A stretch of DNA of 58,207 nucleotides from a virus. Its lineage: Duplodnaviria > Caudoviricetes. The stretch lies in IMG/VR virus record IMGVR_UViG_3300021966_000003, positions 1 to 58,207 of that record. One strand, written 5' to 3'. The translations under genes and the position numbers were made by a program. Positions 4,501-22,413 of the stretch are shown here, in pieces. How positions within the stretch are numbered: position 1 is the first letter of the stretch; the number at the start of each line of letters is the position of its first letter. Below the pieces are notes generated by a model. That model made no database searches. It was not told the origin of the DNA and saw only the letters and a list, made by a program, of their open reading frames with translations.

Positions 4501-5176
4501 TTAATTAAATTTCCACTGATAACTACCAGCAGATTTTGTTTTACCCCTAGCACATCTTGATATGTTACTTTGTTTAATTCTGGATTTTTCACCAGCCGCT
4601 TTAATTGAATCAAACGTCTCAATTAACATACCATCTTTTATACTGCGTAACAGACTTTAACTTCTTTTTATTCGCACATTGCGGACAACCGTATCCACTT
4701 TTAAGGTTATTTGGGGTTATTAACCATTTATTCCGACAAACATTGCAAAACCACGAGCATTTTGTTGTGACGTTTTTATACCCACCAATATAAGTTACTT
4801 TTGGATTGATTGCTTTAATTTCTTTGATGACATCCACCACGTTTTTCGTTGCTCTATCAATTCTGACCGGTTCGCTATTATTATATTTTCTAGTACACCA
4901 CATTAGATTGTTGATATTATTATTCAATGGGTTTCCATCTATATGATGAACATCGCTATTAACAGACTTATTCCGATTTGGTATAAACATCATAGCGACC
5001 AAACGATGAATACTGGCTTTCTTTGATTCGCCATTTTTACTAAGACCTACGACTAGATACCCGTGACTATTTAACGTTCCATTCAATAACCTGTTTTCTT
5101 TGTTTTTAACTCTCCCTTTGTTACTAACCCAGTATAGCCCTTCATATCCTTCAATTTCCTTCCAAAATTCAATCAA
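4501..5176 (-). pseudogene. NUMOD4-HNH-zinc ribbon-NUMOD1 endonuclease, frameshifted near 4637
   Basis: Removing one A from TATAAAAGAT restores QYKDGMLIETFDSIKAAG...SAGSYQWKFN, matching the tail of paralog 44367..45059. Confidence 0.8.
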
Positions 5177-5737: not shown

Positions 5738-6517
5738 CTACCCCAGATACCAGTGCATAGTATACCGCACATTCTTCCATAAAAACCCACAACGGTTCGA
5801 GGTTACATACCATTGCCAACCACTAAAAATCTCATCATTGAACGCTTCCCACATCTCGTCTGTTAGGGCATCACGGTAAAGTAATGTAGACCATGTTGAC
5901 AAATAATATTCAAAGTCACTATTCTTTACCACATCATTGGACCCTAAAGTTTTTGCCCATGACATCAATACATCCGTACTAGCGTCTTCTAGTTCAACAG
6001 CAATACTATGGTTAATATGGTATAGAATATATGCTACCGATTTTGAAAACGATACTAGTATATTATCTTCTTTTTCACTCGGTGTATCAGTTCCACTAAG
6101 CTTAGCGAGCACTGATAACGTTTCAGCCGGTGTTAAGACATCATCATCATCATTTTTGTTATCATGCAGATCTTTTAAGAATGCTTTTAAGTCTTTGAAC
6201 TCTTCTTCCGTAAATACTGGGGATAAACGGTCTAAAGTGCTGCTACCATAATAATCCCCATCTTCTCCAAGTGCGATATATTGATCTTTGTATACGTGGC
6301 GTTCACGTCTTACTTCCGCCCCATATTCCAGCTTGGAGATTACTAAGTGCGGTTCTGGTTTACGATGAAAGGTAACTTCCGTCGTATTATGAGTACTGAT
6401 AGCTGCAGTGGTGTATTCAATCATGTCTTCAACAGTTCGCATCTTATTGATTTCTAACACACCGAGATCTGGTGATCGATAGGGGCCAATATTGCTATCC
6501 AACTTTTTAATGTTCAT
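5738..6517 (-). CDS. Hypothetical protein
   Basis: 259-aa ORF with AGGAGG RBS. Confidence 0.75.
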   Translation of the reverse strand: MNIKKLDSNIGPYRSPDLGVLEINKMRTVEDMIEYTTAAISTHNTTEVTFHRKPEPHLVISKLEYGAEVRRERHVYKDQYIALGEDGDYYGSSTLDRLSPVFTEEEFKDLKAFLKDLHDNKNDDDDVLTPAETLSVLAKLSGTDTPSEKEDNILVSFSKSVAYILYHINHSIAVELEDASTDVLMSWAKTLGSNDVVKNSDFEYYLSTWSTLLYRDALTDEMWEAFNDEIFSGWQWYVTSNRCGFLWKNVRYTMHWYLG

Positions 6518-16168: not shown

Positions 16169-16873
16169 TTAAATATATTTCCATTCGCTACCGTCTAGCG
16201 GCTTTCTTTGCCCTTTTGCATACCTTGAAATTGTACTTTTTCCTAACCCCATGAACTTCGTAGCTTCTGAAACTGACCTAAATCTATTGATTTCTAACCC
16301 ATCTTTATATTGAGCAACAGGTTTGCTATTCTTTTCGCCAATAATCCTTGCTGCGCATTTAGGGCACCCATGACCGTGAGTAACAGAGTCACTCGTCGCC
16401 GCCCAATTGTTGCTGCACACTTTACACTCCCATAAACATTTTGTCATGGCGTTGTAATACCCTTCTACATAAAAGATACTTGAATTAATAGTTTTTGCTT
16501 TTTCAACCATTGTCCCAACACTTTGAACCTAAGAATCATGATTACGCTTTTTAGCAATTGGCTCACTGTTATTATATTGATAAGTACACCACATTAGATT
16601 GCTTGCATTATTGTTAAACGGATTACCATCAATATGATGGACTACAGTGTTGATTTCAGAGTGAGGATTTGGGATAAACGCTTCTGCTACCAAACGGTGA
16701 ACCTTATAAAAATGTTTATTATCAAGACGAACTGTTAGTCGTTTTGATTCTCCACTTCCAGTAAAATATTCAGGTACTGCTTTCCTATTATCAGAACACC
16801 TAACACAACCATCCGAACAAACTTCAAAATTTTTTATTTTTCCAATAATCGGCACCCAAATCCTATGTTCCAT
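16169..16873 (-). pseudogene. NUMOD4-HNH-zinc ribbon-NUMOD1 endonuclease split by one in-frame TAG at 16529
   Basis: ORFs 16529..16873 and 16169..16510 are in frame: HDS*VQSVGTMVEK vs HDTMVQGEQAMVEQ in 44367..45059. Confidence 0.85.
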
Positions 16874-17341: not shown

Positions 17342-17488
17342 CTATTTACGTTTTTTACGATGATTGCGTTTCTTCCCACCCCACCGACCTTTTCTATATA
17401 GTCCTTTATCACCGTGCTTGCTAGCATACTTATTAAATTTAGCATTGGCCTCATCCATCACCCTGTTATGATCTTCAATAACTCCCAT
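17342..17488 (-). CDS. 48-aa peptide with Arg/Lys-rich C-terminus
   Basis: AGGAGGTGA RBS; MGVIEDHNRVMDEANAKFNKYASKHGDKGLYRKGRWGGKKRNHRKKRK. Confidence 0.7.
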   Translation of the reverse strand: MGVIEDHNRVMDEANAKFNKYASKHGDKGLYRKGRWGGKKRNHRKKRK

Positions 17489-17518
17489 TGCACTCACCTC
17501 CTATTAGTTAATAAATAT

Positions 17519-17547
17519 ATTATAGCATCTTTATATTAATGAGTCAA
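17519..17547 (-). promoter_or_regulatory. Leftward sigma70 promoter
   Basis: TTGACT-17-TATAAT with extended -10 TG. Confidence 0.8.
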
Positions 17548-17611
17548 CCTACTTGTTTATTTAATTTATACGTGATACAATAGTATTATACAATAAAGTA
17601 ATACTATTTAG

Positions 17612-17640
17612 TTGACTTTTAGTATGTTATGTGTTGTAAT
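17612..17640 (+). promoter_or_regulatory. Rightward promoter in front of the putative ncRNA
   Basis: TTGACT-17-TGTAAT; a second candidate TTGTTT-17-TACAAT at 17553-17581. Confidence 0.6.
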
Positions 17641-17660
17641 TAACTTACAATTAAATACAA

Positions 17661-18271
17661 AAGTTCAAGGCTGTTGTTTTATCAATGGTAACCGGTCCGA
17701 TGTGCATCGTTAAGTACATGTACGTCCGAGAGAAACTTTAGATGAGATTGAAGACTCTTGGAAAGACGTTAGCCGAGTAAAGCGGTCAAGCTCGGTACCT
17801 GTAGAGCATTCACTTCGTTGTGTTTGTATCAATACGGGACGCTAACGCTTCTATAAAGTAGTGATATTTGATAGGGGTTATGCAGAAAAGACGGCGGCGA
17901 GGAAACGCTTGTGAGCAACATATCGGTCCTTTAGGATTTATCTGCCCCATGATGAGGGTGACACTTTTAGGATGACGATTCACAGGTGAGGGAAGCATAT
18001 AGCAACTCATTCAAGCGTATATGGAAACAGCGCAATACCGAAGGGGCTTCATGCCGGTATGAAAAGTTTGAGGATTATCTGAAATGATAATCATAGTCAA
18101 TCTCTTATGACGACGGGTTCTCAGTGTTCGAACTCTCGAAATTACTAATTGTCCTTTAGTCTCTTTAGTGCGCTCTAAAATAAGTTCACTTTTAGTAGCA
18201 GGCAATTAGTATATTTCCTCTAGGAAACTCGTATTCAAACTCTCACATTAGCCCAGCTTGGTCTTGATCTT
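17661..18271 (+). ncRNA. Candidate large structured ncRNA, about 610 nt
   Basis: No credible ORF; upstream promoter; ends pair (AAGTTCAAGGCT / GGTCTTGATCTT); at least eight internal helices found by eye. Confidence 0.6.
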
Positions 18272-18467
18272 AATTACTTATCTTTTGATTAATTGATTAT
18301 TAATTAAGTTAACTTAAAACGGTTTACATAATACTAGCGTAACGTAGCAACAGAGAGGATAAGAATTATCGTTAACACGAAGACATACAGTATAGTAATA
18401 GAGCATCTCAACCAAGCCGGTTTCTAAGGCGTAAACATTCGCACTATACATACAAGGAGGTGATTAA

Positions 18468-18578
18468 ATGATTAATGGGAGTAATCCGCTAAAGGATAAT
18501 TATAAATCTGTAGAAGAACAGTCCAAACAATTGAAAAGATTATTAGAAATTGTTGAATTTCCTAAGAAGAAAAAGTAA
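18468..18578 (+). CDS. 36-aa peptide ending PKKKK
   Basis: AAGGAGGTGA RBS; MINGSNPLKDNYKSVEEQSKQLKRLLEIVEFPKKKK. Confidence 0.55.
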   Translation: MINGSNPLKDNYKSVEEQSKQLKRLLEIVEFPKKKK

Positions 18579-18655
18579 TTAATAATGTAAACTATTGTTG
18601 ACTTATATGTATTTTCGTGCTATAATGGTATTATTGATAGGAAAGGAATGATAAT

Positions 18656-18889
18656 ATGACATCTGGCGATCAGCTTGTTGCATCTACTTTAGTTATTGTT
18701 GATGCAGAAATGCCGAATCTAATTAAACGTTGGGTTGGACCAACGGGAACTTGTGAAGAATTAGATACTTTTGTGAGTCAACTTAAAGTACAAGATAACG
18801 AATATCGTAAAGAATGGCGATTAGGTAAGAATGAAGATTATGCTTATGCCATTTCTCGTAGATATACTGTTGTCAAGGCTGGTAAGTAA
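18656..18889 (+). CDS. Hypothetical protein
   Basis: Follows a TTGACT-17-TATAAT promoter and AAGGA RBS. Confidence 0.7.
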   Translation: MTSGDQLVASTLVIVDAEMPNLIKRWVGPTGTCEELDTFVSQLKVQDNEYRKEWRLGKNEDYAYAISRRYTVVKAGK

Positions 18890-19345: not shown

Positions 19346-19927
19346 GTGGAGGAGTGGGAAAAACTATATATTGTATATGGTCATGACTTTAAGGGCAATT
19401 ATGAAGTTAGTGATTGCGGGGATGTGAGAAGCATTGACCACTACGTGAACGCAAATACTGGTACGAGATTGGTGAAGGGGAGGATTCTTTCGTATGATAT
19501 TGGGAAATCCGGGTATAAAAGAGTTGGTCTTAGCGATTCTGGAAGAGTCAGAAAAACCGTTAACGTCCATACGCTTGTTATGTTAGCATTTGTTGGGGAT
19601 GCTGACGGACTTGTTATCAATCATAAAGACGAAAACAAGTTAAACAACAAATTGAATAATCTTGAATATGTAACACAAAAACAAAACTTAAATTATAAAA
19701 ACGCACAAAAGAGAAGAGTCCACACACGAACATTTAAAGTTGGGTATTTTACAGAAACGGGAGTATCTTTTTTTGGCAATATAACTAAAGCCGAATGTTT
19801 AACCGGTATTGATAGACATAAAATCAGAAAGTCAATTAATAGTGGTGGATTAATTGACTGCTGGAAAGATATAAAAACTAAAACAGGTTTTGAAAATGAA
19901 GAAGTAAGTTGGCAGCTTACTCTATAA
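19346..19927 (+). CDS. NUMOD4-HNH homing endonuclease
   Basis: YEVSDCGDVRS; INHKDENKLNNKLNNLEY. Confidence 0.88.
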   Translation: MEEWEKLYIVYGHDFKGNYEVSDCGDVRSIDHYVNANTGTRLVKGRILSYDIGKSGYKRVGLSDSGRVRKTVNVHTLVMLAFVGDADGLVINHKDENKLNNKLNNLEYVTQKQNLNYKNAQKRRVHTRTFKVGYFTETGVSFFGNITKAECLTGIDRHKIRKSINSGGLIDCWKDIKTKTGFENEEVSWQLTL

Positions 19928-19937
19928 TAAGGAGGCG

Positions 19938-20264
19938 ATGACTTTGTACAGATCTTTTATTGGGAAGTTAGATAACAAAACGTTACCGGAACTACGAAAG
20001 AAATTCTATTCAGAATACTTTCAGCAAGTAGAAGACGCAGGAGAACGATTAAAGATTGTAGAAACATTTTTTGATATAGAGGTAGGAGAATTCTTTGATG
20101 AGTACGTAGAACGAATCTATCATGTGTCACCAGTACAAGATGAAGTTGTAGCAGATGGAGATAATGTCCTTCAATTTTTAGCAATGATTGGCGACTACTT
20201 AGTACGTGGTAATGATAAAAACTATTCATTTGAACCAAGTAATTTTATTTCGTCAAGAGGTTGA
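19938..20264 (+). CDS. Hypothetical protein
   Basis: AAGGAGG RBS. Confidence 0.7.
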   Translation: MTLYRSFIGKLDNKTLPELRKKFYSEYFQQVEDAGERLKIVETFFDIEVGEFFDEYVERIYHVSPVQDEVVADGDNVLQFLAMIGDYLVRGNDKNYSFEPSNFISSRG

Positions 20265-21348: not shown

Positions 21349-22413
21349 ATGCCTAAAGTAGATTTATTAGGAATTGAACCAATTAAGGTAAGTACAGATA
21401 TCAAGAGTTATTCAATGCTGTTTTATTCTGAATCAAAGTTTGGTAAATCAACATTTGTTAACGACCTTTTTGGCGATCGAGTATTAAATATCATGACTGA
21501 AAAACGTTACAGTGCTTTAGAAGGGGCTAAGGTTGTCTATGTACCGGATTGGGCGACGTTTAAGTCTGTACTAAAAGAATTAAAGAAACCAGAAGTCAAT
21601 GCGATGTATGATGCGATTTCTATTGATACTGTCGAAAACTTGTACGATTCACTAAACAAATATGTTGCCGGTCAATACGGTGAACAATTCGTTGGTGATG
21701 ATAAGTCGATCGGATTTGGTCAAGACTACACCCGGATGGATAATGTTTGGAAACGGACTATGAAAGAAGTAGAATCATTAGACTATACTTCGATCTTTGT
21801 AAGTCACGTTCAAGATAAGATCGATTCTATTCCTATTGTTGATGTTGATGAAAAGACTCACATTGTTGGTGGCAATAAAACTACTGATAAGAACGGTAAA
21901 GAAGTTATTGAATTCACGAAACATCAAGCAAGTTTGCGTGAAAAGGCGTTGGGCGTAATCACAAAGATGGTTGATAACATTCTATTCGGAGAAATTGTGA
22001 TTGGTAGTGATAACGAACAACATCGTGTAATTCATTTGCGTGGTACTCTTCAATATGATGCTGGTACTACATTTAAGGATGTACCAGACACGATTCAGTT
22101 CAGCGCTAAGGCTTATAAGGATGCAGTTGACAAAGCATTGGGTAAGTATGAGAATACAACTGATGATACTATTCGGCATTCTGATATTAAAGAAACTGAA
22201 TATGATTTTGATGATATCATGGGATACGCTAAAGAATTAGCGATGGCATTTCATGAAGCTGGTAAAATGGGTGAAGTTACTAAGATCACTGATAAGGAAC
22301 TTGGTAAGGGCGTACAGGTTGGTAGTCTTGATGAAACTCGTGTAGAAGAACTTGACGTTGTAACGAATGCGATGCATGATAAAGCATTAGAACTTGGTTT
22401 AGTAAAGGCTTAG
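21349..22413 (+). CDS. AAA_24/Sak4-like ATPase
   Basis: YSESKFGKST Walker A; ISIDT Walker B; FVSH. Confidence 0.8.
   Translation: MPKVDLLGIEPIKVSTDIKSYSMLFYSESKFGKSTFVNDLFGDRVLNIMTEKRYSALEGAKVVYVPDWATFKSVLKELKKPEVNAMYDAISIDTVENLYDSLNKYVAGQYGEQFVGDDKSIGFGQDYTRMDNVWKRTMKEVESLDYTSIFVSHVQDKIDSIPIVDVDEKTHIVGGNKTTDKNGKEVIEFTKHQASLREKALGVITKMVDNILFGEIVIGSDNEQHRVIHLRGTLQYDAGTTFKDVPDTIQFSAKAYKDAVDKALGKYENTTDDTIRHSDIKETEYDFDDIMGYAKELAMAFHEAGKMGEVTKITDKELGKGVQVGSLDETRVEELDVVTNAMHDKALELGLVKA

Follow-up and report, generated by a model that had tools for sequence, protein, structure and literature searches.

ROOL is described as a large (~580 nt), multi-junction, pseudoknotted RNA of phages and prophages, including those of Lactobacillales, that is sometimes found near tRNA islands and has been assigned neither a role nor a protein partner (Weinberg et al. 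2017, PMC5737381; Kretsch et al. 2025, PMC12286853). GOLLD is likewise a large ornate RNA of Lactobacillales phages, composed of a conserved portion and a more variable one (PMC12286853). In this study, we analyzed a 58,207-base IMG/VR virus record with a completeness estimate of 74% (hereafter, the window), in which a first-pass annotation had proposed that a noncoding stretch at the strand divergence point encodes a large structured RNA, either of a class such as ROOL and GOLLD or of a new one. The existence of a large structured RNA was borne out by homologs with many compensatory pairs, and the window stretch at 17647 to 18275 on the plus strand is, judged from its sequence, very probably a divergent member of this family, here called element A.

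The first part of the proposed alternative was not upheld. Rfam 15 gave no gathering-score match in the whole window or in seven related loci. When positions 17400 to 18700 were searched at E ≤ 10 with permissive filters, only chance-level matches were obtained (E 1.7–6.6; an Enterococcus small RNA, a long noncoding RNA region, AfaR, and a small nucleolar RNA), and at the same threshold the window and the corresponding gap of phage Maenad likewise gave chance-level matches only (E 1.3–6.6). ROOL and GOLLD were not matched at E ≤ 10 on window positions 17400 to 18700 or in the Maenad gap; group I and group II introns, RNase P RNA, transfer-messenger RNA (tmRNA), 6S RNA, and signal recognition particle RNA had no Rfam match in the window, where ARAGORN also detected no tRNA or tmRNA gene. 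Because Rfam 15 gives nothing, the element is very probably not ROOL or GOLLD, and of the two possibilities the new class stands: it is a new family within a known kind, the large ornate phage RNAs.

Beyond the absence of an Rfam match at any threshold tried, the new family differs from ROOL in having been found so far in virulent phages only, always right behind an early promoter at a divergence point, and in that proximity to tRNA genes is limited to its LP65-type members. It resembles GOLLD in that the window and phage Ldl1 diverge from the plantarum group mostly outside the core helices, but it is shorter (~525–630 nt, compared with more than 800 nt for GOLLD), has no Rfam match, and has no tRNA inside or adjoining it. 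A further likeness is to phi29 pRNA, a phage RNA transcribed from an early promoter that forms a multimeric RNA part of a machine. That RNA is ~170 nt long and belongs to phages with protein-primed replication; it shows no similarity in sequence or fold to the new family, and there was no Rfam match. A description of the element was not found in the full text of the literature covered, including the Gut-P1 genome paper, an Oenococcus phage paper in which the phages discussed here are compared, and a large-scale survey of structured viral RNAs with candidates of 67 bases on average; supplementary motif lists (224 motifs in PMC5737381; 10,006 candidates in PMC10690425) lie outside this scope and may list short fragments of the RNA.

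Fold and strand of a conserved noncoding element

The Sak4-like protein of the window (21349–22413) is approximately 50% identical to homologs of the Tybeckvirinae phages Maenad, Satyr, P1, P2, SA-C12, Lenus, Nyseid, Gut-P1, and 8014-B2, and 41% identical to the Ldl1 homolog. The window and its relatives, including Maenad, have a common gene order, consisting of a noncoding gap, small open reading frames (ORFs), a Holliday junction resolvase, further ORFs, Sak4, and an exonuclease. In Maenad, the same place is occupied by an unannotated 1.2-kb gap between divergent genes, and blastn with this gap revealed two separable conserved elements, A and B. Element A (~520–525 nt) was recovered from seven further distinct phages (P1/P2, Gut-P1, SA-C12, Nyseid, Lenus, 8014-B2, and LP65) with 72 to 90% identity. 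LP65 is a myovirus of the Herelleviridae, a different family from that of the siphovirus carriers; its copy of the RNA is 64 to 84% identical to the siphovirus copies, and the match is limited to the RNA, with nothing beyond it aligning. The carriers are virulent Lactobacillaceae phages, namely, Tybeckvirinae siphoviruses, Ldl1, and the unrelated LP65-type myoviruses. In the annotated records, the region is a gap of ~1 kb at a strand switch in all cases except SA-C12, in which two "hypothetical protein" genes, gp087 and gp088 (locus L008, 1577–1988), are drawn inside element A. These ORFs are not conserved in the other members, and the two genes are probably mis-annotations.

Eight A elements were aligned (561 columns, mean column identity of 78%), and the RNAalifold consensus comprised 104 pairs, with compensatory double changes in 38. 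A pseudoknot was added by eye between the loop of a hairpin of the form CTTTAG-N5-TTGAAG (P2) and the stretch just 3' of the hairpin with the TGAAAT loop (P10). In the final set of 110 pairs, 96.1% of the 877 cells in the eight sequences were standard pairs. Both sides had changed in 43 of the 110 pairs, compared with 25.4 ± 2.9 in shuffles, and none of 500 shuffles reached 43, although the shuffles take no account of relatedness and the structure is scored on the very sequences that gave rise to it. Controls in which the pairs were slid by 1 to 3 columns gave 2 to 9 pairs changed on both sides and 35 to 44% pairing.

The consensus fold has several junctions and one supported pseudoknot, the helix of which comprises eight pairs that are 100% paired, five of them with double changes. 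Compensatory changes were found in 3 of the 6 pairs of P3 and, in an alignment of 14 sequences, in 18 of the 29 pairs of the central domain. The GAAA loop on a small junction hairpin was kept in all 14 rows. Some members (Maenad, P1, Lenus, LP65, and 8014-B2) have in P5 an internal loop that may resemble the classic GAAA tetraloop receptor.

The first-pass annotation had also argued from G-U pairs that the RNA is transcribed from the plus strand. In the family alignment, G-U or U-G pairs occupied 111 cells and A-C or C-A combinations 8, and pairing fell to 84.4% when the same pairs were read on the other strand. Because G-U outnumbers A-C and pairing is lower on the other strand, the RNA is assigned to the plus strand. 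The longest ORFs across ten members were 25 to 72 amino acids long, with no strand, frame, or position in common. Of 14 A-type members scanned, all except Ldl1 (that is, the window and 12 members of plantarum type) have a promoter-like site with at least 5 of 6 matches at −35, a spacer of 16 to 18, and at least 4 of 6 matches at −10; in 12 A-type members, including the window, it was TG-extended and stood in the same register (20–21) before the conserved 5' block. Element A thus combines a multi-helix fold and a pseudoknot with plus-strand polarity, no conserved ORF, a host-type promoter in register, a cassette-like distribution, and a fixed place, the divergence point between a leftward operon and rightward recombination and replication genes.

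The window element compared with the family

A covariance model of the central domain (R1) was built only from plantarum-type phages, without the window. Its top match in the window was at 18009 to 18131 on the plus strand, with 32.1 bits, an E value of 6.9e-5, and full model length, and the next match scored 18.4 bits. In the R1-fitted alignment, 25 of the 29 pairs of the window were standard, 11 differed from the family's commonest pair on both sides, and 10 were of types absent from the other 13 sequences. Each of two sequence signatures of the family has a single occurrence in the 58 kb, CTTTAG-N5-6-TTGAAG at 17736 to 17753 (0.00 expected) and AACTCGYATT-N0-1-CAAA at 18226 to 18239 (0.01 expected); both are on the plus strand and in the order seen in the family. 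The pseudoknot already proposed between GAGATTGA (17744) and TCAATCTC (18097) consists of eight Watson–Crick pairs and lies at the place homologous to the family pseudoknot, that is, in the P2 loop and the stretch after P10. Sharing in the 3' domain is limited to the 14-nt 3' block.

Ldl1 bridges the window and the plantarum-type group. Its copy was detected by R2, a model of the 5' part (P2, P3, and P5), with 26.1 bits and an E value of 1.8e-5 in 3 kb; its P3 hairpin is nearly letter-for-letter that of the window, and it has, by eye, its own complementary loop and downstream pair. A blastn search of 50,697 phage records returned no match for the window stretch and only Ldl1 itself for the Ldl1 element. 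MAFFT misaligned P2 of the window. The assignment of the window stretch to the family draws on the R1 central domain, P2 with the pseudoknot, the in-register promoter, and the position at the divergence point before the recombination module.

All ten helices listed in the first-pass annotation are present in the window, nine of them free of mismatches, and the pairing of the two ends (17661–17672 with 18260–18271) contains one mismatch. Their standing in the family varies. CCGAG/CTCGG (P3), ATACCG/CGGTAT (P9b), the GATTATC hairpin (P10), and the pseudoknot are homologs of covarying family helices. The hairpin TACTAATTGTC/GGCAATTAGTA (18143/18201) is a plausible P12, but R3, a model of the 3' part, gave no confirmation. 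By contrast, AGTTTGAG/TTCAAACT and ACGGGTT/AACTCGT are in competition with P9 and P11, local helices that the family model places in the same region, and these two long-range helices are probably wrong. CGTTAGC/GCTAACG, GCTTGTGAG/TTCACAGGT, and the end-pairing are situated in lineage-specific parts.

The promoter-like sequence TTGACT-17-TGTAAT noted upstream was verified and carries in addition a TG extension; the second base of its −10 hexamer, a G, had kept a consensus promoter scan from calling it. The 5' end of element A is inferred from the position of this promoter, and its 3' end is uncertain because a terminator was not found. The stretch is indeed less AT-rich than its flanks (GC content of 0.37–0.445 inside, compared with 0.245–0.31 in the flanks) and holds no credible ORF, the longest inside it being 66 and 64 amino acids, both on the minus strand. 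The minimum of the cumulative GC skew, at approximately 17400 to 17600, coincides with the strand divergence point. The features of the locus are collected in Table 1.

Table 1. Features of the divergence-point locus in window coordinates.
Feature	Position	Strand	Basis or remark
Leftward promoter of the divergent operon	17519–17547	−	11 of 12 matches, with TG
Promoter of the RNA, TTGACT, 17-nt spacer, TG-extended TGTAAT	17612–17640	+	Sequence verified
Structured RNA, element A (probable family member)	17647–18275	+	Colinear family signals at 17736–17753, 18009–18131, and 18226–18239
P2 hairpin, family signature CTTTAG-N6-TTGAAG; loop is the pseudoknot 5' strand	17726–17761	+	Signature and weak R2 alignment
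Pseudoknot 5' strand GAGATTGA	17744–17751	+	Eight Watson–Crick pairs with 18097–18104
P3 hairpin, CCGAG-loop-CTCGG	17773–17795	+	Family P3 covaries; Ldl1 hairpin near-identical
Central domain: P9 three-way junction with GAAA-loop hairpin (18022–18029), P9b (18035–18060), P10 (18073–18092), and P11	18009–18131	+	R1 match
3' strand of the pseudoknot, TCAATCTC; follows P10 closely, in agreement with the family	18097–18104	+	Same alignment columns as the family 3' strand
P12-like long hairpin TACTAATTGTC/GGCAATTAGTA, 11 pairs	18143–18211	+	AGGCAA on the 3' strand shared with family P12 (by eye)
Conserved 3' block AACTCGTATTCAAA, 14 nt	18226–18239	+	Family pattern, single occurrence
AT-rich spacer separating elements A and B; contains inverted repeats	18269–18308		Public assemblies break here
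Element B, second conserved noncoding block separable from A	18320–18460	+	Blocks common to 10 other phages
Next rightward promoter, before the early genes	18598–18626	+	11 of 12 matches, with TG

Distribution, element B, and neighboring genes

A 23-nt family pattern, AACNCAMTCYNNWAGGCARACTA, retrieved only the six known isolates from IMG/VR. The pattern GAGTAAANNNNNCAAGCTC occurred there in at least 118 stretches, and none of the 86 loci screened was member-like, a result that is uninformative. In JGI metagenomes, the 23-nt pattern gave seven stretches, of which nhmmer confirmed five (four full-length and one partial); these are 88 to 98% identical to LP65, Lenus, or 8014-B2. A search of one genome per bacterial species with the single plantarum-type pattern found six stretches in unrelated bacteria, none of them confirmed by nhmmer. 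When R1 and R2 were run with default filters on 29 IMG/VR loci near distant Sak4 genes, only Ldl1 was recovered (R2, 26.1 bits, E 0.0028). The best R1 match in these loci (21 bits, E 0.099) falls inside a Sak4 gene and was rejected. Contigs from four studies, of which one concerned an anaerobic digester, two concerned landfill, and one concerned wastewater, are identical DNA over the parts of window positions 17500 to 18600 that they cover, and the window may derive from the digester run; since the contigs of these four DNA runs are identical to the stretch, they provide no natural variants for covariation. One public contig of the same phage terminates within the spacer between elements A and B, in the reverse-complement arm of the inverted repeat.

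Element B is ~135 nt long. In most members it comes after element A; Lenus lacks it, and the Harbinvirus myoviruses Dionysus, Bromius, Lpa804, and Iacchus have B but not A. Copies elsewhere lie at 6140 to 6290 of locus L004, 2500 to 2640 of L052, and 1840 to 1960 of L029, with shared runs such as TACTAGCGTRACGTAG and CGGTTTCTAAG. The RNAalifold consensus structure of element B contains no pairs; by eye, a 3-bp stem around the loop GGTTTCTAA covaries. In the Harbinvirus myoviruses, a different noncoding stretch of ~800 nt precedes element B (1660–2470 of L052, Dionysus, and the same region of L053 and L054). It, too, stands at a divergence point of this kind and is preceded by a promoter-like site; it is 98% identical among the three phages and shares the short runs AAAACTTAATA and ATAACCTACC with element A. 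No Rfam match was obtained for it, and R1 and R2 found nothing on the three Harbinvirus loci. This stretch may be another large RNA or a very divergent relative of element A. In the window, the interval between element B and the next promoter contains, immediately 3' of B, a 36-amino-acid ORF (18468–18578) with a strong Shine–Dalgarno sequence (AAGGAGGTG).

The RNA is also located at a divergence point in the LP65-like contig L173, where an island of ten tRNA genes begins on its other side at a distance of ~1.6 kb. No tRNA gene is close to the RNA in the siphoviruses or in the window. One tRNA of the L173 island (4835–4911) was predicted by ARAGORN to have a four-base anticodon (atgg). Freestanding HNH endonuclease genes adjoin the noncoding block in P1, Gut-P1, SA-C12, Nyseid, and Lpa804, and the window has such genes at 19346 to 19927 and, on the other strand, at 16169 to 16873. 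They are absent beside the block in Maenad, Lenus, LP65, 8014-B2, Dionysus, and Iacchus. We infer that they are homing enzymes that settled beside a conserved sequence rather than part of an RNA–protein system. At 16169 to 16873 on the minus strand, adjacent ORFs of 114 and 113 amino acids match different parts of longer HNH endonuclease families and may represent a split or frameshifted homing endonuclease gene. The window also encodes, at 19938 to 20264, a 108-amino-acid protein that belongs to a PHROG of unassigned function; its second match, a weak one, is to a sigma-factor family (E 5.8e-4).

Possible roles of the RNA

On balance, our analysis leans toward 17647 to 18275 being the gene of an early RNA that is free and folds by itself, and that either has a host-specific target in trans or self-assembles. 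The host RNA polymerase would transcribe it among the earliest transcripts of infection, and the RNA would fold on its own, with a tertiary packing to which the invariant GAAA tetraloop and the pseudoknot point. It would then function as RNA, either in trans on the host-specific target or as a self-assembling particle, modes of action that have been proposed for ROOL and GOLLD (PMC12286853). Host specificity would explain why siphoviruses and myoviruses of L. plantarum share the RNA at 64 to 84% identity while their other genes are unrelated. In GOLLD, a kissing loop supported by covariation is described as an intermolecular bridge (PMC12286853), and the pseudoknot found here could likewise be intermolecular.

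Several observations weigh against this reading or against the place of the window in the family. The folding energy of the window stretch itself is unremarkable (minimum free energy z scores of −1.09 for the plus and −0.21 for the minus strand); folding no better than shuffles had been named beforehand as a sign against a structured RNA. The stretch contains 152 helices of at least 7 bp, compared with 153.8 ± 13.4 in 40 dinucleotide shuffles. Single-sequence helices are at chance level, and the case therefore rests on comparison alone. That comparison draws its covariation from approximately six lineages of one host group. The two signature patterns are post hoc because they were written after the window had been seen. 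R2 aligned to 17716 to 17841 with only 11.7 bits (E 0.72, rank 2 in the window), and in a later search of 13 loci with the same model, four chance matches scored above the window; once fitted to the model, chance matches at a similar score paired to much the same extent as the window (20 of 27 pairs, compared with 24 of 27). At E ≤ 5, R3 (P12 and the tail, 12 pairs) gave no match at the locus in either the window or Ldl1, and an nhmmer profile of eight plantarum-type RNAs found nothing at the window locus. A terminator scan of the window detected no plus-strand terminator between 17300 and 18800. In Lenus, the RNA abuts the first early gene, an arrangement that suits a leader as well as a free RNA. 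Lastly, no RNA sequencing run was listed as containing the sequence, and RNA-seq data for these phages were not found in the literature.

We consider it unlikely that the transcript is instead a replication-origin RNA, which would be made from the early promoter, fold, form a persistent hybrid or be processed in the AT-rich spacer downstream, and prime phage DNA synthesis. Such an RNA would be comparable to ColE1 RNA II or to the transcribed origin between the divergent promoters of lactococcal phage c2, which involve a structured transcript of ~550 nt that runs from a constitutive promoter into an AT-rich region near replication functions. The location of the element agrees with this, since it coincides with the GC-skew minimum and lies directly upstream of the recombination and replication module; nevertheless, a skew minimum is expected at any switch in gene orientation. 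In the window, SA-C12, and LP65, the sequence that comes after element A is an AT-rich spacer containing inverted repeats, but such repeats were not found in the Ldl1 or Dionysus spacers, and iteron-like direct repeats were lacking in the spacers of four of five phages, SA-C12 having one family of two 9-nt copies 95 nt apart. The absence of a detectable terminator after the RNA and the consideration that an origin primed by host polymerase without a dedicated initiator could be common to unrelated phages of one host also fit an origin. On the other hand, the pseudoknot, the invariant GAAA tetraloop, and the 43 covarying pairs exceed the known needs of a primer; a pseudoknot together with a tetraloop hairpin is typical of compact tertiary folds.

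It is also rather improbable that the element is a cis-acting leader of the rightward early operon, in which the RNA, while still being transcribed, would act on the transcribing polymerase to give processive antitermination or would control early gene expression in another way. The element does come directly after an early promoter on the same strand as the early genes, no terminator was found between the two, and the Lenus arrangement fits a leader. However, a stronger second promoter stands between the RNA and the early genes in the window (18598–18626), the element exceeds known cis antitermination RNAs 5- to 8-fold in size, and it moves between phages without the downstream genes, as the LP65 match to the RNA only demonstrates.

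Another explanation, that the window stretch is nonhomologous promoter-rich spacer DNA or a decayed gene whose helices arose by chance, appears very improbable. It would account for the shuffle-like folding energy (z = −1.09) and helix count and for the lack of significant matches by nhmmer, R2, and R3, but not for the top R1 match (E 6.9e-5) with 11 compensatory pairs, the two single-copy signatures in the correct order, the homologous position of the pseudoknot, the near identity of the P3 hairpin with its Ldl1 counterpart, or the agreement of synteny and promoter register. A very divergent ROOL or GOLLD missed by the Rfam models is scarcely credible, given the lack of any match in the window or Maenad at E ≤ 10 with permissive filters and of any gathering-score match in the window or the seven related loci, even though the size, the Lactobacillales phage hosts, and the LP65-type tRNA island 1.6 kb away resemble traits given for these RNAs (PMC5737381, PMC12286853).

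Somewhat more tentatively, the family might be a third class of ornate phage RNA beside GOLLD and ROOL and the first placed as the leading early transcript of virulent phages. It would be a cassette exchanged between siphoviruses and myoviruses that share a host, with a compact fold, comprising the pseudoknot, the invariant GAAA tetraloop, and in certain members the receptor-like internal loop, and with a catalytic, host-factor-sequestering, or self-assembling role in host takeover, and the ~800-nt Harbinvirus element would be a further such RNA. To our knowledge, bacterial and phage RNAs longer than 500 nt with conserved tertiary-type structure are very few, namely, rRNAs, group I and II introns, RNase P RNA, OLE, GOLLD, ROOL, and raiA. 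Each of them has proved biochemically unusual. The finding also corrects an annotation, that of the two SA-C12 "hypothetical protein" genes inside the RNA. Genetic testing is hard for ROOL and GOLLD, many examples of which are metagenomic. For the new family, culturable pairs are available (L. plantarum with Maenad, P1, Lenus, 8014-B2, or LP65, and L. delbrueckii with Ldl1), and the function of the RNA is therefore genetically testable. The fixed place as putative first early transcript and the horizontal exchange among unrelated phages of one host point to a host-directed role of the RNA in takeover or counter-defence.

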